IMG/VR virus record: IMGVR_UViG_3300024344_000011 | Span: 1 to 58,236 of that record | Reading direction: 5' to 3' (one strand) | Origin: a virus | Lineage: Duplodnaviria; Caudoviricetes | DNA length: 58,236 nucleotides | Part shown: positions 2,950 through 57,211 of the stretch, piece by piece | How positions within the stretch are numbered: position 1 is the stretch's first letter | How the letters are laid out: the number at the start of each line of letters is the position of its first letter | The notes under the pieces: generated by a model | The model's input: only the letters and a program-made list of their open reading frames with translations | Told to the model about the DNA's origin: nothing | The model's database searches: none | Position numbers and translations under genes: made by a program

Positions 2950-3456
2950 ATGGTAGGCAATAAGAGAAAAGCAAATGTCAAGGCAGTAGCAAATGAGCCG
3001 ACAAGTTTGGACGCCAAATTGACAGAAAAGGAAATGAGATTTGTAGAGCATTATGTAAAAGATAATCTCTCTCAAACGGAGTCGGCAAGACGAGCCGGTT
3101 ACGACCATGCAAGACAAGAGGGATATAGACTGATAAGAAGAAAACACGTAGCCGACAAGATAGTAGAAATGCAAGACGATTTAAGACAACGGGCTAGGAT
3201 TACACCTGAAAGGTCTTTAAATGATTTAATGAAAATTAGAGATAAGGCATACCAGGAGGGATCATACAATGCCTCAATCGGAGCAGAAAAATTACGATTA
3301 CAGATAGCCGGATTGTTAGTTGATAAGAAAGAAATTAAGACAGGAAAGATAGACCAAATGACAAGAGAAGAGGTCATGAAAGAATTAGAAAAGTTACACG
3401 CAATTGCTGAAGAGAATACGATAGATATTACAGCTACTTCCACCGAAACTGAATGA
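2950..3456 (+). CDS. terS: terminase small subunit
   Basis: LTEKEMRFVEHY...NLSQTESARRAGY HTH typical of TerS; alternative start GTG 2929. Confidence 0.85.
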   Translation: MVGNKRKANVKAVANEPTSLDAKLTEKEMRFVEHYVKDNLSQTESARRAGYDHARQEGYRLIRRKHVADKIVEMQDDLRQRARITPERSLNDLMKIRDKAYQEGSYNASIGAEKLRLQIAGLLVDKKEIKTGKIDQMTREEVMKELEKLHAIAEENTIDITATSTETE

Positions 3457-3568
3457 GTGTAAACAAGTTTACAAATGTTTACTAAAACTAGGGCCATTAC
3501 ATAAAACTCTAGGAATAAACCAGGGGGGTGGGAGGCTTCCCCTCCCCCGAAAAAAAATTGAGATACAA

Positions 3569-3609
3569 GTCGGGGCATATGTAGTCGGGACACACATTAG
3601 TCGGGACAC
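3569..3609 (+). repeat. GTCGGG tandem motif cluster 1
   Basis: GTCGGG at 3569, 3584, 3600; TAGTCGGGACAC twice. Confidence 0.85.
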
Positions 3610-3717
3610 GTATAAAACCAAAACTAAAACCTATCAGTTCAAGTTTAAGTTCTAAAAGTCCTAGCCAGGGGAAGGCCAAGTCCTAGCTAGACCGGCTTAA
3701 AACCAGGGAATGTTTCT

Positions 3718-3747
3718 GTTTACATTATGTAAACCATTTGGTAGATT
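3718..3747 (+). promoter_or_regulatory. sigma70-like promoter overlapped by a palindrome
   Basis: TTTACA(3719)-17-TAGATT(3742); GTTTACAT-T-ATGTAAAC at 3718-3734. Confidence 0.7.
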
Positions 3748-3798
3748 CATAATCAGAAAGACTACCTTCGTAGTCTAGTTAATGGGAGTTAACATAAC

Positions 3799-4092
3799 AT
3801 GGCTAAATCAGCTACACACAAAATAACTTTATTTCAAACTGACTTAAATAGAATTAACAGAAGTATTAAAGAAATCCAGGAGAGTGAACCGGAAGGAACA
3901 AGCCTCTTTTACATGGAAATACCATACGATGTTGATAAGAAAGAGTTAGGTGATGTGTTTGTGTTTCGCACTACACTTAAAGAAGAAACCGAAGAGTATG
4001 AAACACGCATAAGTAAAACTTGGAAATACGAGGATTACGAAATTACCTTGACTGACCATTACGAAACGAAAGACATAAAACTTTCTGATTAG
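3799..4092 (+). CDS. hypothetical early protein (cassette 1)
   Basis: 97 aa, GGGAG RBS, own promoter and terminator. Confidence 0.85.
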   Translation: MAKSATHKITLFQTDLNRINRSIKEIQESEPEGTSLFYMEIPYDVDKKELGDVFVFRTTLKEETEEYETRISKTWKYEDYEITLTDHYETKDIKLSD

Positions 4093-4112
4093 TAGAAGAA
4101 CTTCTAGAAGAG

Positions 4113-4147
4113 GCCCCGACTCGTCTTGACCTGTCGGGGCTTTTTTT
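4113..4147 (+). terminator. rho-independent terminator
   Basis: GCCCCGAC...GTCGGGGC stem followed by T7. Confidence 0.85.
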
Positions 4148-4329
4148 GTGCCTTTTCTCCAGGAAATCTCCGGGTGTCGGGACATACGTAAAAGAGTCGG
4201 GATTCATGTAAAAGACCAGGTGGTTCTCCGGGTAATATAACAGATCACCAATTATTACATTACCTGGAACCCGGCCAGGCGCCTCGAGGTTACCGGGTAG
4301 AAGGCCTTTGCTCCAGGAAAGAAAGTTGG

Positions 4330-4373
4330 TTTACATTCTCTTGAGGTTGTGTTATGGTTTACATATTGTTAAC
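4330..4373 (+). promoter_or_regulatory. sigma70-like promoter with downstream near-palindrome
   Basis: TTTACA(4330)-17-TATGGT(4353) with TG extension; GTTTACATATTGTTAAC 4357-4373. Confidence 0.7.
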
Positions 4374-4394
4374 TATTAAAGGGAGTTAAAAACA

Positions 4395-4589
4395 ATGACA
4401 AATAACTTAAATAAAATTTACTTTACTTATCTAGACGAACTGAGAGGTTCCGGGGAAACCAATATGTTTGGCGCTCCGTCTTATCTTATTTCTGAATTTG
4501 GAATCGATAAGAGGGAAGCCATGGACATTACGTCAGCATGGATGACCTGGGTATCTAATGGTCGTCAAATTGAAGAGGTGGCATCATGA
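4395..4589 (+). CDS. conserved small phage protein (LDELR.SG.TNMFGA family)
   Basis: Widespread phage early-gene motif; GGGAG RBS. Confidence 0.85.
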   Translation: MTNNLNKIYFTYLDELRGSGETNMFGAPSYLISEFGIDKREAMDITSAWMTWVSNGRQIEEVAS

Positions 4590-5023
4590 CAACATCATTG
4601 AATCCATTTCCAAAGGGTTTTTTAAAGGAAACTTTTCAAGGCCCGAAGAAAAAAACGAATCGCGATCTGAGTTGTGAAGAAAGAGTCGACGAATACTTAG
4701 CCGACAGACTCCAAGATATAAAGGAGTTTGCCCAGGAAGGTTTTTCATCTGATGATTTTTTTGAATATGGCTTATCTGTTGATTATGTTGAGCCGTTCAC
4801 ATTCGGAGATGACCAGGAAGAAGGATACTTACGTTATCAATTATCGTGGGGTGGCCCTAGCGATGAATTTAGGTTTTATCAATTACGAACTGAATACTGG
4901 TTCCTGGATTGGCATGACGGAGCATCAAGGGACGTATCCCAGGAAGATGATATTATAGAATTAAAATCTTTCTTTAATGATTGCGGTTATTTCGATCCAA
5001 GTTTTGAGGGGGCATCATTATGA
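4586..5023 (+). CDS. conserved acidic phage protein (YLRYQLSWGGPSDEFRF family)
   Basis: ATGA coupling; motif recognition. Confidence 0.85.
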   Translation: MTTSLNPFPKGFLKETFQGPKKKTNRDLSCEERVDEYLADRLQDIKEFAQEGFSSDDFFEYGLSVDYVEPFTFGDDQEEGYLRYQLSWGGPSDEFRFYQLRTEYWFLDWHDGASRDVSQEDDIIELKSFFNDCGYFDPSFEGASL

Positions 5024-5298
5024 GTCAACCATCAATAACTTTAGAAGAGGCCAAAAAACATATCGATAAAATGAACAATGAAAGTCTATATAATTTCATT
5101 GACCAACGCCGGGGGGTTGATAGTCTCATGCTAGAATATGCAAATGAGGTAGCCACCAGGCGACTAGCGAAAGAACACGCTATGTTATGGAAAGGCCAAA
5201 AGTTTAAGGACGAACCACTCCAGGACATTATCGATCGCAAGAATAAAGAGTCACAAGATTTTCTTAATGACCATATAGAGATCGTGCATATCAAATAA
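5020..5298 (+). CDS. hypothetical protein
   Basis: ATGA coupling, GAGGGG RBS. Confidence 0.8.
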   Translation: MSQPSITLEEAKKHIDKMNNESLYNFIDQRRGVDSLMLEYANEVATRRLAKEHAMLWKGQKFKDEPLQDIIDRKNKESQDFLNDHIEIVHIK

Positions 5299-5316
5299 AC
5301 AAGGTTAACTCCGGGG

Positions 5317-5348
5317 AAAAGGCGAGGCTAATAACTTCGCCTTTTTTT
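5317..5348 (+). terminator. rho-independent terminator
   Basis: AAAAGGCGAGG...CTTCGCC followed by T7. Confidence 0.8.
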
Positions 5349-5497
5349 GTGTCGGGAATCCAGGTCGGGAGTCGGGATACGCATCATAGACCTGGCCATG
5401 TATTAACCAGGAATAGATAATATATATAATAAACAAAACTTGGGCCATGTGGTTGCTAGTCATGATCTAGGTCATTTAAATTAAGTTAAGTAAATAG

Positions 5498-5527
5498 TTG
5501 CAATTATCATTTTTATTTTGTTATAAT
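5498..5527 (+). promoter_or_regulatory. strong sigma70-like promoter
   Basis: TTGCAA-18-TATAAT with TG extended -10. Confidence 0.8.
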
Positions 5528-5551
5528 AGGTCATTAACAACGGAGATTAAA

Positions 5552-5944
5552 ATGAGATTAAAAGAAAAGATAACCTTAATAACTGAGAACAAAGGTAACG
5601 CAAGAATTTGGATACAAGGCGATACCGATGTTGAAAATCATGGCTTTACTGACGGACAAGTATTCACCGTTAGTTATGGAGACTCACAAATTGTCTTACA
5701 GCTTACAGGATTGAAAAGACAAAAAGGTATGCGAGTCGACAAAGAGTTTAAGCGTAAGCATAACTTACCAAAGAACACTATGAAAGTGAGTAAGACTGAG
5801 AGAGGTTCAACGATTGATATTGGCAACAAGTTTGTTACAATGGTTGCGGTTGACAATAACAAGATTGGCAATTTTATTCCTTACAAGCTTAAGAATAACA
5901 AAGACTCGAATCATAACAGCATGGTATTCATGTTCGATAAGTAA
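5552..5944 (+). CDS. AbrB/SymE-like fold protein resembling the N-terminal domain of ICE/plasmid C5-MTases
   Basis: ATG 5552 after GGAG; ENKGNARIWIQG...GF..G..F.V.Y and KVSKTERGSTIDI patterns. Confidence 0.6.
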   Translation: MRLKEKITLITENKGNARIWIQGDTDVENHGFTDGQVFTVSYGDSQIVLQLTGLKRQKGMRVDKEFKRKHNLPKNTMKVSKTERGSTIDIGNKFVTMVAVDNNKIGNFIPYKLKNNKDSNHNSMVFMFDK

Positions 5945-5965
5945 CCGAATCACATACCGAATCAG

Positions 5966-5993
5966 TGGCGTTCTTCGGGACGCCATTTTTTTT
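5966..5993 (+). terminator. rho-independent terminator with cUUCGg loop
   Basis: TGGCGTTC-TTCG-GGACGCCA followed by T8. Confidence 0.9.
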
Positions 5994-6165
5994 GGGTAGT
6001 ATCTTTTTGAATCGGACTCCGTTTTTATTCGGGAATGTTGGGGAGAGGGGAGGGAAGATATAGCGCCCCCTTCTTTAGAAAACCTCTAGAGAGGTTGATT
6101 TCTGTCAAATAGTTATCAATCAAAATATAATTGGAGTTGCAAGAAAAAAGTGGTATAGATTCGTT

Positions 6166-7413
6166 ATGTACGAAAATATAGACATTTCCGAAACTATCAT
6201 TGATGAAAATGAAAAAGATTTTCAAAAAAGAAAAATGATAGAAAGGCTGAGAGAAAAATTTGATTCAGAAGGAAACATGAGCGATGCTGATGTTTTATTA
6301 AAGTTCAGAGAAACTTTAGAAGAACCTGGTTTTTCCGGATTAAGGCGTGCAGAATCTAAAGAACGGCTTCGTGGTTCACCTAGACCTATGCCTTACCCAC
6401 CTATTTCTCCTTTTGAAGAACCTGATCCTGATGAAGATTATGGTTCTAATTGGTATGACTCATTAACCGATGAAGAAAAAGCAAGAATAGATAAACAAAA
6501 TAAACCTTATAGAGATAGAAACCGAATGCTTAAACCTGAGATGTACGATGGCCCTACCGAGCAACTTGCTCATGGTGGTCAAGTAAGACGAAGAGTTCCT
6601 GATATTTATTTTAATAAATACGAAGAAGGTGGCGAAGTCTATGAACCTCGCATAGCAGAAAGAGCGCCTTACTTTAATTTACCTGATTATGAAACAGGCG
6701 AATATGATGACATAAAGTTAAGTAGGTTGAGAAATTTATTTACCAAACTACTTCCTGATTACAAGGAAGTTCAGTACAAAGGTGGTTCACAAGCAGCAAA
6801 AAACTTTATAAGTAATATAGGAAATTTTGCTGGGGAAGTAGGATTAACTCCTTTTAAATTTGCAGATATGTTTTTAGAGTTTGCTGGAGGAGGTTCTCCA
6901 ATAGATTCTTTCAATCTTTATATGGATAGACCAGAAAGAGTATATCCGGATAGTCCAGCTGTTTCTAAAATAATGCCATGGAATGTGGAAAGAAAAAATT
7001 ATCACGAAGAATTTCCTATCGAGAGATTTAAAGAATATGATACGATGAAATATAGACAACAATACAACATGGGGGGAGCGGTCAACAACCCTTCTACTAT
7101 GGGGATACAATCATTAACACCCTCCCTTACAACGCACAGTGTCCCCGGCTCCCCCCAAACAAATGCTGTTAATACGAATGATCCAAGATTTTCTAACAAC
7201 AGTGTTAATCCCATAACAGCTTTAGCTAGTGGTATTGGTAATTTAAATAAAAGCTCTAATACTACTAATGCTCTTTTAAAAAAGAACAGCGCTAACCCTA
7301 ATGCTAATGCTAATGCTAATTTAAAAATAAATTACACACCTAATCCAACAACAAAAGAAAATAGATTTGCATTCTTTAATGCTTTAAATAGTACACGACC
7401 AAATTTAGGTTAA
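6166..7413 (+). CDS. hypothetical protein with several xxGG motifs (possible internal virion protein)
   Basis: 415 aa; LAHGGQV, YEEGGEV, FAGGG, YNMGGAV. Confidence 0.75.
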   Translation: MYENIDISETIIDENEKDFQKRKMIERLREKFDSEGNMSDADVLLKFRETLEEPGFSGLRRAESKERLRGSPRPMPYPPISPFEEPDPDEDYGSNWYDSLTDEEKARIDKQNKPYRDRNRMLKPEMYDGPTEQLAHGGQVRRRVPDIYFNKYEEGGEVYEPRIAERAPYFNLPDYETGEYDDIKLSRLRNLFTKLLPDYKEVQYKGGSQAAKNFISNIGNFAGEVGLTPFKFADMFLEFAGGGSPIDSFNLYMDRPERVYPDSPAVSKIMPWNVERKNYHEEFPIERFKEYDTMKYRQQYNMGGAVNNPSTMGIQSLTPSLTTHSVPGSPQTNAVNTNDPRFSNNSVNPITALASGIGNLNKSSNTTNALLKKNSANPNANANANLKINYTPNPTTKENRFAFFNALNSTRPNLG

Positions 7414-52047: not shown

Positions 52048-52287
52048 ATGCAAGATGTAAACAGTTATTCAACTGCCAGGATATATACTAAATCATTAGC
52101 AAAAGCTCGTCTGCTTGCTAAAGATCAAAAGAAAAGTCAAATAAGAATAATAGAAGAAGCTATCAATCTTTTATGGAGCGATAAAATGAACCAAGAAGAA
52201 CCGATAGATATTATGGAACATTTACCTGAAGAAAAATCCACTGGGAGAGGGATTGAGAATGCGTTCAGCAACAGCAGAAAAGATTAA
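52048..52287 (+). CDS. small ribbon-helix-helix-like regulator
   Basis: YSTARIY strand, then two helices (LAKARLLAK, QIRIIEEAINLL). Confidence 0.55.
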   Translation: MQDVNSYSTARIYTKSLAKARLLAKDQKKSQIRIIEEAINLLWSDKMNQEEPIDIMEHLPEEKSTGRGIENAFSNSRKD

Positions 52288-52816
52288 ACCAAATAAAAAG
52301 TTACGAGGCTTAGAGTTATTTGCCGGGATTGGTGGTATGACTTTAGGTTTTGAAATGGCTTATGGAGAAGACTATGAATGCGTGGCATTTGTAGAGAGAG
52401 ATAAATATTGTGGAAAGGTTTTAAACAAACATTGGAGCGATGTTCCAATATATACAGATATAAGGGAATTTGATTATGACAAAGAAAAAGACAGACTCGG
52501 AAGAATTGACATTGTTCTCGGAGGTTTCCCATGCCAACCCTGGTCAGGGGCAGGAAAGCAACGAGGGGCGCAAGATGACCGAGACCTCTGGCCTGAAATG
52601 TTACGAGTTATTAAAAGCATCACGCCCCGACCTAGATGGATCATTGGCGAAAATGTGCAAGGCTTTGTTAACATGGAGATGGGACTCTCCCGCACGGTCT
52701 CTGATTTGGAAAATGAAAACTACCAAGTCCAACCATTCGTATATGGCGCTGTCGCCGTCCAGGCAAGGCATCAAAGGCAACGGTGTTTCGTTGTGGCCCA
52801 CTCCAAGAGCGACTAG
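52253..52816 (+). CDS. C5-cytosine DNA methyltransferase, catalytic part (motifs I-VIII)
   Basis: LFAGIGG, DI, GGFPCQPWS, ENV, HQRQRCF; stops just after motif VIII. Confidence 0.9.
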   Translation: MRMRSATAEKIKPNKKLRGLELFAGIGGMTLGFEMAYGEDYECVAFVERDKYCGKVLNKHWSDVPIYTDIREFDYDKEKDRLGRIDIVLGGFPCQPWSGAGKQRGAQDDRDLWPEMLRVIKSITPRPRWIIGENVQGFVNMEMGLSRTVSDLENENYQVQPFVYGAVAVQARHQRQRCFVVAHSKSD

Positions 52817-53723
52817 CCGTATGGCATATAGGGAGAAACCTTCCCCTTCTATGATCAATGGAACACATGGTTGGAGTCTTAATGCAGCTGTTACAGATAG
52901 CATGAGTGATACACCACATAGAATGTGGAATACTCCTACAGCTTTTGATTCGGGTAATCCTAATACACAAGAAAAAATAGATAAAGAAGCCAAAACAAAT
53001 AGAAAAGGCAGAGACAAACCAGGTCACTTAAAAGAAGAGGTTATGGTTGAAGAGGGTTTAAGAATGTGGCCTACAGACAATTTAATTCCTACTCCTGTTG
53101 CGACTGATCACCAAGATAATCCGGCTGAACAATTAGAAAATTGGAAGAAGAGAGCTAAAAAGAAAAAAGAAGAAGGAATAAACTTACAGTTTGCTCTTCG
53201 TCATTATGTGCAAATGTATCCCACTCCTACTGCAAGAGATTACAAAGGAGCAAGAAAGCCTGAAACATTAAAAAAGAAAGGCCGAACCGAAACAAACTCT
53301 TTACCTGATAAAGTGAGAGCATTAGAAGACCATAGAATGTGGCCCACTGCGAGAGCCGCTCTAGGTATGAATATGAAAACAACTGAAGGCATGGCAAAAC
53401 TCAGACATAAAGGATATTTAGAAACAGAAGTAGCCCATGTTCATATACACGAAGAAAAAAAAGAGCCTGTGGGAGCATTAAATCCTCCATGGGTTGAATG
53501 GTTAATGGGGTTTCCGATTGGTCATACCTCCATCAATGAAGATATTACATACAATATGGAGGTAGATTATTGGGGGGAAGAACCTCCTATATCAAGAGTA
53601 GCTGTAGGGGTAAAAAATAGAAAAGATAGATTGCGTTGTTTGGGGAATGCTGTTGTTCCTCAATGTTTAGCTGTGATAGCTGAATGTATTAAAGAGGTAG
53701 AAGATGAAGAAAACAATAATTAG
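52476..53723 (+). CDS. C5-cytosine DNA methyltransferase, second part (tandem TRD-like modules, motifs IX-X)
   Basis: AAGGGA RBS at 52462; five PT[PA].A modules; LNPPWVEWLMGFP and RLRCLGNAVVPQ. Confidence 0.85.
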   Translation: MTKKKTDSEELTLFSEVSHANPGQGQESNEGRKMTETSGLKCYELLKASRPDLDGSLAKMCKALLTWRWDSPARSLIWKMKTTKSNHSYMALSPSRQGIKGNGVSLWPTPRATSRMAYREKPSPSMINGTHGWSLNAAVTDSMSDTPHRMWNTPTAFDSGNPNTQEKIDKEAKTNRKGRDKPGHLKEEVMVEEGLRMWPTDNLIPTPVATDHQDNPAEQLENWKKRAKKKKEEGINLQFALRHYVQMYPTPTARDYKGARKPETLKKKGRTETNSLPDKVRALEDHRMWPTARAALGMNMKTTEGMAKLRHKGYLETEVAHVHIHEEKKEPVGALNPPWVEWLMGFPIGHTSINEDITYNMEVDYWGEEPPISRVAVGVKNRKDRLRCLGNAVVPQCLAVIAECIKEVEDEENNN

Positions 53724-53880
53724 CTTAGTGATTCTTTTAGGAGGGTGTAATGCAACGGGAGTATCTAATTGCGATGTGCCTATTCATATAGGAACTGCAT
53801 ATAACAGCGAGGGACAAATGGTTATTTTAGAAGTTGAAGAACCAGGGTGTCCACGCATTGATACTTTTAAGGATTTCTAA
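53704..53880 (+). CDS. small lipoprotein (not in ORF track)
   Basis: MKKTIISLVILLGGC lipobox; GAGGT RBS; 58 aa. Confidence 0.7.
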   Translation: MKKTIISLVILLGGCNATGVSNCDVPIHIGTAYNSEGQMVILEVEEPGCPRIDTFKDF

Positions 53881-53881
53881 A

Positions 53882-54454
53882 ATGATTCCTTTTCCAAAAA
53901 AGAAATACAATGTTATCTATGCTGATCCACCATGGCACTATCAAACATGGGGAGAGGGAAGTAATCGGAATGTAACCTCTAAATACGATACTATGTCTCC
54001 AGAAGAAATCTTTAAACTTCCTGTTAGTGATTTAGCAGATGAAGATTGTGTTTTGTTTATATGGGTAACTTTTCCCAAATTACTAGAGGGAATAAAAACT
54101 ATAGAAGAATGGGGATTTACCTACAAAACCCTTGCGTTTAACTGGGTAAAAACAAATAAAAAACTTAAAACGAATCAGACCTCTTTCTTACCTATGGATA
54201 GCTTTGATACCTTTTGGGGCTTAGGATATTGGACGAGAGCCAACAGTGAATTGTGTCTATTAGCTACAAGAGGAAAACCTAAGCGTGAATCCTGTAAAGT
54301 CCATCAGCTTGTCTATGAGCCTGTTCGGGAACATTCAAGAAAGCCGGATTGTGTCCGGGATAGAATTGTAGAACTCATAGGCGATGTTCCTCGTATCGAA
54401 TTGTTTGCTCGTCAAAAAGCTAACGGTTGGGATAATTGGGGTAACGAACTTTAA
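53882..54454 (+). CDS. MT-A70 family adenine methyltransferase
   Basis: YADPPW, LFIWVT, WGFTY, GLGYWTR, EHSRKP, IELFAR. Confidence 0.92.
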   Translation: MIPFPKKKYNVIYADPPWHYQTWGEGSNRNVTSKYDTMSPEEIFKLPVSDLADEDCVLFIWVTFPKLLEGIKTIEEWGFTYKTLAFNWVKTNKKLKTNQTSFLPMDSFDTFWGLGYWTRANSELCLLATRGKPKRESCKVHQLVYEPVREHSRKPDCVRDRIVELIGDVPRIELFARQKANGWDNWGNEL

Positions 54455-56668: not shown

Positions 56669-57211
56669 CTATAATATATTAAACAAAAATTCTTCTGTAG
56701 TTAAGTCGGGTATCTCATTACCCCATGCGTCCCAATTTGGTCGGGTATCTCTAGCAAACAGTTCTATTCTTGGCTCATGCGACATATGTTCTATGACTTG
56801 AATGGTTTCTCCGGGTTTAGCCGAATGCTTACCTCTCTTTGCATAAACCAGGCTAGGTATATTTCTATGTTTAGGTTTTAAGTTACCTTTAACTCCAAAC
56901 AAACAAATCTCATGTTGCCCTCTAAAATAATATCCAATGCCAAATCTATCTTTAGCCCACACCATGTTGGTTACATATCTAAATCCCCACTCCTCCATAA
57001 CCTCAAGGCCGTCCTTTAAAAAGTTATTTGTAACCCATAAATACAACCAACAATTATCATCAGCTAGGTCGGGGACATTTAATTTCTTGATTTCTTCCGT
57101 TTTCATAAGAGGATAATGTCTATCTGCGCCACGCTTTATCTTCCCCCCACCTTGTTCTTGCCAGGGGGGATCAGCTAATATGGTTTTATATTTTTTATCC
57201 GGAAAGAGCAT
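56669..57211 (-). CDS. MT-A70 family adenine methyltransferase (second copy)
   Basis: LADPPW, LYLWVTN, WGFRY, GIGYYFR, KHSAKP, IELFAR. Confidence 0.92.
   Translation of the reverse strand: MLFPDKKYKTILADPPWQEQGGGKIKRGADRHYPLMKTEEIKKLNVPDLADDNCWLYLWVTNNFLKDGLEVMEEWGFRYVTNMVWAKDRFGIGYYFRGQHEICLFGVKGNLKPKHRNIPSLVYAKRGKHSAKPGETIQVIEHMSHEPRIELFARDTRPNWDAWGNEIPDLTTEEFLFNIL

Follow-up and report, generated by a model that had tools for sequence, protein, structure and literature searches.

In ordinary C5 cytosine methyltransferases of the M.HhaI type, the small domain is made up of the recognition domain together with motif IX, and a conserved Thr-Leu element lies by the flipped base. In the multispecific enzymes of Bacillus phages (SPR, phi3T, rho11s and MtbP of SPbeta), contiguous units of about 40-50 residues are found between motifs VIII and IX, and each unit gives one target. 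Here we analysed a methylase locus carried by the virus record IMGVR_UViG_3300024344_000011, a marine tailed phage whose genes include those for terminase, portal and head proteins and whose G+C content is 36%. The window referred to below is the whole of this record, 58,236 bp in length. Judging from its sequence, the locus very probably encodes a two-chain C5 cytosine methyltransferase from overlapping same-strand genes read in different frames: a catalytic chain, alpha, and a second chain, beta, which bears an array of five tandem cassettes.

Two-chain enzymes of this class have been described. M.AquI (CYCGRG) consists of two chains, one with motifs I-VIII and the other with the distal variable region and motifs IX-X (PMC3404938). 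Compared by this described layout, alpha and beta of the window divide motifs I-VIII from the variable region and motifs IX-X in the same way. The window differs in that beta starts far upstream, with a 341-nucleotide (nt) overlap with alpha motifs IV-VIII and an N-terminal domain of its own, and in that five cassettes in a row make up its variable region. For M.EcoHK31I (YGGCCR), it is reported that beta is read in another frame of alpha, that both chains are needed, that the N-terminus of beta is needed for association and that motif IX is on beta (PMC2836561). By this description the two systems would be alike in deriving two chains from overlapping frames, and 77 relatives of the window locus show exactly that nesting, with motif X on alpha. 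The contact role of the beta N-terminus in our model of the window enzyme would also agree with the need for this region in M.EcoHK31I. However, full nesting of the M.EcoHK31I type was not found in the window, where alpha stops at 52816, after motif VIII, beta, which includes motif X, continues to 53723, and the two genes overlap only in part. A further difference concerns the recognition domain, which the papers put on alpha, whereas in the window family the VIII-X stretch of alpha is a low-complexity passenger and the beta frame is the conserved one.

The window resembles the Bacillus-phage enzymes in the position of its tandem units, as five of them occupy 52794-53486, between motifs VIII and IX. 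A Pro-Thr-x-Thr-like element is found in the units of both groups (SPTLTT and AFTVNT in MtbP; WPTPTA in the window family). The original prediction, made from the letters of the window alone, had set the locus beside these enzymes. Kinship was not borne out: SPbeta MtbP, the only one of them compared, had no detectable similarity to beta (best BLASTP expectation value, E, 3.2), and the likeness is one of analogy, not of membership. The Bacillus-phage enzymes are also single chains read in one frame, whereas the window has two chains, and the window family has a much larger repertoire, with freer shuffling (83 types in 82 proteins).

Two conserved reading frames

Motifs I, IV, VI and VIII of C5 methyltransferases are all present in alpha, in this order (Table 1). 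Alpha matched PF00145 (E 3.1e-39) with residues 18-186, corresponding to model positions 2-164 of 324, that is to the first half only, and TIGR00675 (E 2.7e-32; 112.7 bits for a cut-off of 100.65). There are 29 stops in the alpha frame between 52817 and 53723, indicating that alpha is not read through. Motifs IX and X, which close the C5 fold, are both present on beta, where they were recognised by eye and by their conservation in the family; the motif IX stretch contains WVEWLMGFP. The proposal that the catalytic chain is split from the cassette-bearing chain was upheld by this distribution, motifs I-VIII lying on alpha and the cassettes on beta, and the complex model presented below supports binding of the two.

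The ATG codons of alpha and beta each have a purine-rich stretch 8 nt upstream, GGAGAGGG in the case of alpha, for which TTG at 52253 is another possible start, and AAGGGA in the case of beta. The beta ATG at 52476 falls within the motif III-IV region of alpha; the closest preceding stop in its frame is at 52461, leaving the frame open from 52464. No family in Pfam or NCBIfam was matched by beta. One protein on record (P0001) has the same length, 415 amino acids (aa), and is 97% identical. In BLASTP comparisons with other phage betas, the N-terminus of beta matched the N-terminus of P0015 (E 9e-09) and P0006 (E 7e-30), and the N-terminal domain is kept in short betas too. Because of this homology, and because the same layout is found in L003/L004, the open +1 stretch upstream of the cassettes is, on comparative grounds, not accidental.

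Loci of relatives were collected with three queries, which gave a first set of 34 rows with a motif IV open reading frame (ORF) and a second set of 80 loci related to the protein P0048. In the first set, 21 loci were fully nested, 10 were laid out like the window and 3 were unclear (one riddled with insertions and deletions, one cut and one ambiguous). The second set comprised 56 nested loci, 17 cut by contig ends, 3 with other layouts, 3 without a beta frame and 1 without motif IV; a single-frame arrangement of the methylase parts was found in none of the 80. In the nested layout, seen in 77 loci in total, beta lies wholly inside the alpha gene in the +1 frame and consists of the N-terminal domain, the cassettes and motif IX, while alpha is made of motifs I-VIII, a low-complexity open stretch across the cassette region and then motif X. 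The longest overlap reached 1,869 nt (L066; alpha 728 codons, beta 623). L001, which is 97% identical to the window, has the same alpha stop and frame relation, and L003/L004, from a different phage with 60% identity, have the same two ORFs, frame relation and junction. As judged from these layouts, the window is a partly un-nested, derived relative of the nested form and not an example of it. It can be regarded as an evolutionary intermediate, in which the move of motif X onto beta lets the nesting dissolve. To our knowledge, it is rare in phages and bacteria for two genes on the same strand to overlap by hundreds of codons and each to yield a functional product. The enzyme described here would depend on such a long overlap, and many loci retain the layout.

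Four proteins on record (P0035, P0048, P0057 and P0119) appear to join motif IV to cassettes in a 'fused' single chain. When looked up in the closest loci, the 10-mers of these proteins came from frame 0 over the initial 140-195 residues, whereas those from residue 160-210 onward were in frame +1. Each protein had its own switch point and all four were without motif X. From this switch of frame, and from the lack of single-frame loci in the second set, we infer that the 'fused' proteins, which look like frame-hopping gene calls, arose in this way. The nested layout was also present in the Bacillus thuringiensis HD-771 plasmid p05 and in Paenibacillus polymyxa pAP1, for which RefSeq annotates alpha only. 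In L044 (NC_018502.1) the nested beta lies at 1408-1896 (163 codons, 1 cassette) and in L043 (NZ_CP040830.1) at 1402-2250 (283 codons, 4 cassettes); both are unannotated, the lone alpha being labelled 'dcm' or DNA cytosine methyltransferase. Annotation pipelines either miss beta or call frame-hopping chimeras, so that many phage 'dcm' genes would be half-described.

Both frames are kept open beyond chance. Stops in the overlap were counted in 21 of the 34 rows of the first set (near-duplicates, a cut locus and a broken locus being left out), and synonymous codons were permuted within alpha. Over 110 codons, which begin a little ahead of motif IV and reach motif VIII, the +1 frame had no stop in any of the 21 loci, and the +2 frame had 2-11 stops per locus, with 10 in the window. 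The probability of finding the +1 frame open under synonymous permutation ranged from 0.000 to 0.41 over the 21 loci and was 0.001 for the window. The cassette region was tested in the same manner in 15 of the 21 nested loci. There the alpha frame was open across the cassettes in all 15, against 7-29 stops in the third frame (probability 0.000-0.15). A lone alpha-frame stop, counted in three of the 15 loci, is alpha's own terminator as read from the coordinates.

The codon positions of substitutions were compared in the 77 nested loci, using ungapped in-register pairs of at least 90 nt with 75-97% identity. In the alpha-only region, alpha positions 1:2:3 took 2257:839:9947 substitutions. In the cassette region, beta positions 1:2:3 took 3728:2197:10843, that is 65% at the third position. 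This excess indicates that the beta frame is under purifying selection there, the alpha linker being merely kept open. In the overlap, the counts at beta positions 1:2:3 were 5360:16953:11417. The share of substitutions at the third position of alpha, which is the second of beta, dropped from 76% in the alpha-only region to 50% in the overlap, as a second constraint would produce. In the lineage of the window itself, differences in the beta-only region fell at beta positions 1:2:3 in the ratio 7:2:18 when compared with L001 and 13:10:41 when compared with L003. Both frames are probably translated at 52476-52816, a reading supported by frame openness and homology, with a weak signal at synonymous sites.

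The cassette array and its natural variation

Five tandem units had been predicted at this locus, in the slot occupied by target-recognising domains. The units were found where they had been placed, in one open beta frame, and they lie between motif VIII in the alpha frame and motif IX in the beta frame (Table 1). Absent from the original prediction were the overlap of the first unit with the end of alpha in another frame, the start of beta within alpha, the conserved beta N-terminal domain and the full nesting of beta in most relatives. The units have in common a W/Y/I-P/N-T-P/A head, Ala as the sixth residue and a tail of Arg/Gln-Met, and their middles are Lys/Arg-rich. Their mutual identity is only 17-23%, with T3 and A6 as the only invariant positions, and the repeat is therefore recognised through motif and family context, not through overall similarity. 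Nearly all of the 120 best homologues listed had 2-8 units with a [WYF]PTP head per protein.

The DNA words said to be shared by the cassette borders, CATAGAATGTGG at 52917 and 53331 and AGAATGTGG at 53061, were present as claimed. The shorter word occurs five times in the window for 0.40 expected, a number reached in none of 100 shuffles. Since Met and Trp have one codon each, this apparent microhomology is conserved Arg-Met-Trp read as DNA; conserved protein codons account for it, and its proposed role as a recombination device was not retained. The six-residue WPTDNL stub, which had been taken for a recombination scar, was present in 5 of 5 close relatives (P0001-P0005). No stub-free junction was seen among them, and the reading as a scar was not supported.

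Shuffling was assessed by a census of 82 distinct complete betas, from the window and the collected loci, leaving aside identical copies, incomplete ORFs and loci of annotated records. Cassettes were assigned to types by centroid clustering at 55% identity over 80% of their length; this replaced single-linkage clustering, which had lumped 306 of 503 cassettes into one class. The census gave 276 cassettes, 1-8 per beta and with a median length of 44 aa, which fell into 83 types (43 of them singletons) and formed 71 architectures in the 82 proteins. Type 1, to which the first cassette of the window belongs, had 22 members in 22 proteins, where it was followed by 1-4 further cassettes. Arrays one unit apart were common (1-8-2, 1-8-4 and 1-8-12; also 4-3-7-2, 37-4-3-7-2, 6-4-3-7-2 and 6-4-3-7-78-2). 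Types 2, 5, 12 and 14 were nearly always last, and the window holds two of them in tandem, type 12 and then type 14.

A difference of a single cassette also exists between near-identical phages. A contig of 9,637 nt from run X12 matched the window with 6 differences on one side of a 108-base insert and 12 on the other, window 52200-53329 corresponding to 4535-5664 of this record and window 53324-53800 to 5767-6243. The insert encodes a 36-residue cassette, YPTPSAHEN.., which P0004/P0005 (336 aa) carry at the same place. The assembly of run X13 broke into short variant contigs between 53176 and 53443, and a contig of run X7 covered the whole stretch with 2 differences and no insertion or deletion. 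Cassette number and order vary, as predicted, both in the census and between these two phages; the arrangement of the modules, whose invariance had been named as the sign against the original prediction, was variable. Two near-identical phages one cassette apart make a natural experiment.

The beta of L041 (2167-3645) has 8 cassettes, with a two-cassette unit tandemly duplicated almost exactly (15-24-15-24), and two frames over 1,479 nt. The type 10 cassette, found in 8 arrays (among them those of L005, at 2989-4401, P0007 and P0016), contains some 150 inserted residues, among them a stretch resembling a helix-turn-helix (..TDIKKTTIEHWFRKDKSGFSHPSIEDWE..). This indicates that a cassette can hold an extra domain.

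Table 1. Positions of the methylase genes, their motifs, the cassettes and the border words in the window
Feature	Positions	Strand	Remarks
Alpha ORF	52259..52816	+	185 aa and stop TAG at 52814-52816; catalytic chain
Motif I, FAGIGG	52319-52336	+	alpha frame
Motif IV, GGFPCQPWS	52520-52546	+	alpha frame; catalytic Cys in PCQ
Motif VI, ENV	52649-52657	+	alpha frame
Motif VIII, HQRQRCF	52769-52789	+	alpha frame
Beta ORF	52476..53723	+	415 aa and stop TAG at 53721-53723; +1 frame relative to alpha
Alpha/beta dual-coding overlap	52476..52816	+	341 nt; alpha motifs IV-VIII, with the beta N-terminal domain in the +1 frame
Beta N-terminal domain	52476..52793	+	residues 1-106: ..LTLFSE..MTETSGLKCYELL..SLAKM..W.W.S..SLIWKMKTT..
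Cassette 1, WPTPRATSRMAY..GTHGWSLNAAVTD.. (WPTPRATS head)	52794..52925	+	44 aa, type 1; first 8 codons overlap the alpha end
Cassette 2, WNTPTAFDS.., with stub	52926..53084	+	47 aa and 6-residue WPTDNL (53067-53084); type 40, shared with L003 only
Cassette 3, IPTPVATDH..	53085..53216	+	44 aa, type 20; in 4 proteins, with different neighbours
Cassette 4, YPTPTARDYKGARKPETLKKKGR.. (YPTPTARDY head)	53217..53339	+	41 aa, type 12; last in 5 of 6 carriers, internal only here
Cassette 5, WPTARAALGMNMK.. (WPTARAAL head)	53340..53486	+	about 49 aa, type 14; last in 5 of 5 carriers
Border word CATAGAATGTGG	52917..52928 and 53331..53342	+	His-Arg-Met-Trp codons at cassette borders
Border word AGAATGTGG	53061..53069	+	AGA-ATG-TGG, Arg-Met-Trp
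Natural cassette insertion point	53324..53329	+	insert of 108 bases (36 codons), with 6 nt assignable to either side; CATAGAATGTGG follows at 53331
Motif IX equivalent, WVEWLMGFPIGHT	53490..53528	+	beta frame; W339-M344, G345 and T351 invariant or nearly so
Motif X, GNAVVPQ (LGNAVVPQ)	53643..53663	+	beta frame here; on alpha in nested relatives

Modelled chain assembly and the proposed use of the cassettes

The complex of alpha (alignment A2) and beta (alignment A1, 42 rows) was modelled in three runs, with three controls, and judged by a mark that 58 of 80 solved complexes and 2 of 110 mismatched pairs had attained. The alpha-beta model had an ipSAE score of 0.91 in each of the three runs, against 0.00 for the best of the three controls. 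The predicted local distance difference test score (pLDDT) of the partners was at least 55, and at least 86% of the contacts were common to the runs. In this model, beta residues 381-409 (motif X and the last helix) lie on alpha residues 23-39 (the motif I region). Further contacts with alpha are made by beta 46-92 (N-terminal domain), 343-355 (motif IX) and 287-292. The last of these segments, RMWPTA, is the head of cassette 5 and the only part of the cassettes that touches alpha. The modelling supports binding of alpha to beta.

These data suggest a scheme in which alpha would be the S-adenosylmethionine (AdoMet)-binding and catalytic core, with motifs I-VIII, and beta would supply the rest, namely an N-terminal clamp on alpha, the recognition region of five cassettes, motif IX and a motif X helix packing back on motif I. 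The small domain of a C5 methyltransferase would here be a separate chain. The WPT head of the cassettes may correspond to the Thr-Leu element that ordinary target-recognising domains place beside the flipped cytosine. This equation is proposed because of the position of the head, its likeness to the SPTLTT and AFTVNT elements of SPbeta MtbP and the docking of the last head in the model; PTP precedes LMGFP by about 47 residues in the beta of L103, which has a single cassette, and this spacing to motif IX is comparable to that of the Thr-Leu element. As five heads cannot share one site, alternative docking is the simplest reading: with one catalytic site, one cassette would be docked at a time, and the cassettes would be alternative recognition units with one target each. 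Recombination, by adding, removing or exchanging cassettes, would then retune the protection of phage DNA from host restriction sites. That the cassettes form an exchangeable recognition region is, in our view, probable. That they confer several distinct specificities is a tentative suggestion. For the whole, we are inclined to prefer, as the best explanation, a heterodimeric C5 methyltransferase with alternative-reader cassettes retuned by recombination.

Several observations weigh against this scheme or against parts of it. In the complex model the last cassette alone docks, cassettes 1-4 being without confident contact, and the model therefore gives no indication that these four can dock. 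The score of the complex may itself reflect the model's memory of solved single-chain methyltransferases, to which alpha and beta taken together bear a likeness. The beta chain of the window was poorly predicted when modelled alone (mean pLDDT 42.8, alignment A1). The one-cassette beta of L101 (alignment A4, 46 rows) had a mean pLDDT of 64.9, with confident prediction only of residues 59-90 and of the motif IX helix. With this L101 model, Foldseek found no match in the PDB at E <= 0.001 (best E 0.37) and a VIA-align wide search none at Z >= 5 (best Z 3.4); the beta profile A1 gave no match to PDB sequences at E <= 1. Four of the five cassettes are at most 23% identical to cassette 1, and some of the five could be inactive. 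In the overlap, the most variable position remains the second of beta, which is the third of alpha, suggesting that the beta N-terminal domain is weakly constrained. A scan of synonymous differences along alpha (317/351 divergent pairs) gave local dips only, to 0.31-0.39 against about 0.5-0.65. Finally, the arguments for equating WPT with the Thr-Leu element are all of position, motif likeness and modelling.

The same two-chain enzyme might instead use its cassettes jointly, as one extended DNA-binding arm with a single or relaxed specificity, the number of cassettes tuning affinity or processivity. Such an arm would fit the Lys/Arg-rich middles of the cassettes and the docking of only the last one in the complex model. 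It would also fit the restriction of the last position to types 2, 5, 12 and 14, which suggests one privileged recognition unit, and the presence in the window of GGCC, CCGG, GCGC and CCWGG at or above their expected numbers, as broad protection would allow. However, single whole cassettes come and go between near-identical genes, a change that a cooperative domain would tolerate poorly. Every cassette repeats the head that, in the model, occupies a unique site by the catalytic pocket, and the same types are kept in arrays of very different make-up (type 1, for instance, occurs in 22 proteins), as would be the case for autonomous units. We therefore regard a joint arm as unlikely.

It is also conceivable, with distinctly lower probability, that only the cassette adjoining motif IX is active and that the upstream ones are recombination relics, or pseudo-domains. 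'Pseudo' domains are known in the Bacillus-phage multispecific enzymes, the model shows contacts for cassette 5 only, and the WPTDNL stub would be an instance of persisting partial units; cassette 5 itself is without the second Pro (WPTA). Yet substitutions in the cassette region fall mainly at the third position of beta, in 65% of cases for the 77 nested loci and in 18 of 27 and 41 of 64 cases for the window lineage, and the internal types 1, 3, 7, 8 and 10 are kept in many arrays. Very improbable, lastly, is a single gene broken by a frameshift, whether through sequencing error, as a pseudogene or by a programmed +1 shift to a fused chain: the alpha stop does lie 24 nt after the start of cassette 1 in the other frame, and 'fused' chains are on record, but the same stop and frame relation recur in L001, in L003/L004 and in contigs of independent runs without a listed insertion or deletion, the P0048-related loci and the frame-hopping look of the 'fused' proteins speak for two frames, the 106 beta residues ahead of the junction lie in an open frame and have homologues, and no slippery heptamer was seen at 52780-52816. 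The programmed form was rejected on these grounds.

If the cassettes of the heterodimer are alternative readers, they would represent a modular natural route to programmed cytosine methylation and building blocks for designer methyltransferases, and phage-host restriction arms races would become readable from sequence. Cassette type would in that case predict the methylation target, a readable code for thousands of unannotated enzymes.

Extent of the family, neighbouring genes and site counts

A profile of 14 short betas matched 40,667 representative clusters at E <= 0.001, 22,303 at E <= 1e-10 and 2,318 at E <= 1e-30. The weakest of these matches may be ordinary methyltransferases caught through motif IX. 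A tblastn search of the phage collection with beta gave only 3 matching records, each with less than 60% identity. No description of the two-frame family or of WPTP cassettes was found in the published literature covered, which left out subscription journals. We put forward, as a speculation that we hold with less than even confidence, a very large phage and prophage family in which an overprinted, separately translated beta would serve as a combinatorial specificity library, its cassettes, each a self-contained reader of one DNA target, docking one after another at a single catalytic core, being traded among phages and turning over within populations, as at 53324-53329, to follow host restriction.

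Two genes for MT-A70-type adenine methyltransferases lie nearby, at 53834-54454 (+) and 56672-57211 (-), with matches to PF05063 (E 6.8e-28) and to phrog_359 (E 4.9e-84 and 1.5e-64). Together with the C5 locus, this makes three methyltransferase systems within 5 kb of the phage genome. A 58-codon ORF at 53704-53880 (+) begins within the last beta codons. Its product, which starts with MKKTIISLVILLGGCNATG, has a lipoprotein-like signal with a Cys lipobox and matched no Pfam family. A contig of 289 nt from a metatranscriptome library (run X16) spans 52247-52535, including the starts of alpha and beta, with 1 difference. DNA carry-over is possible, so this contig is no proof of transcription; the RNA runs were sampled in small shares only.

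The number of short sites in the window was compared with the expectation of a Markov model. GGWCC was absent for 30 sites expected, and CGCG (5 observed, 23 expected), ACGT (24 and 77) and GTAC (66 and 141) were depleted. GGCC and the three other words named with it above were at or above expectation. This pattern suggests that the phage genome avoids certain host restriction sites and tolerates others, the latter perhaps being methylated. CCNGG, which the original prediction had considered as a possible target, is not depleted (115 observed, 98.8 expected), a result of little weight either way. The CCNGG island named in that prediction lies at 4001-6000, where one 2-kb bin contains 22 sites against 0-7 in all other bins.

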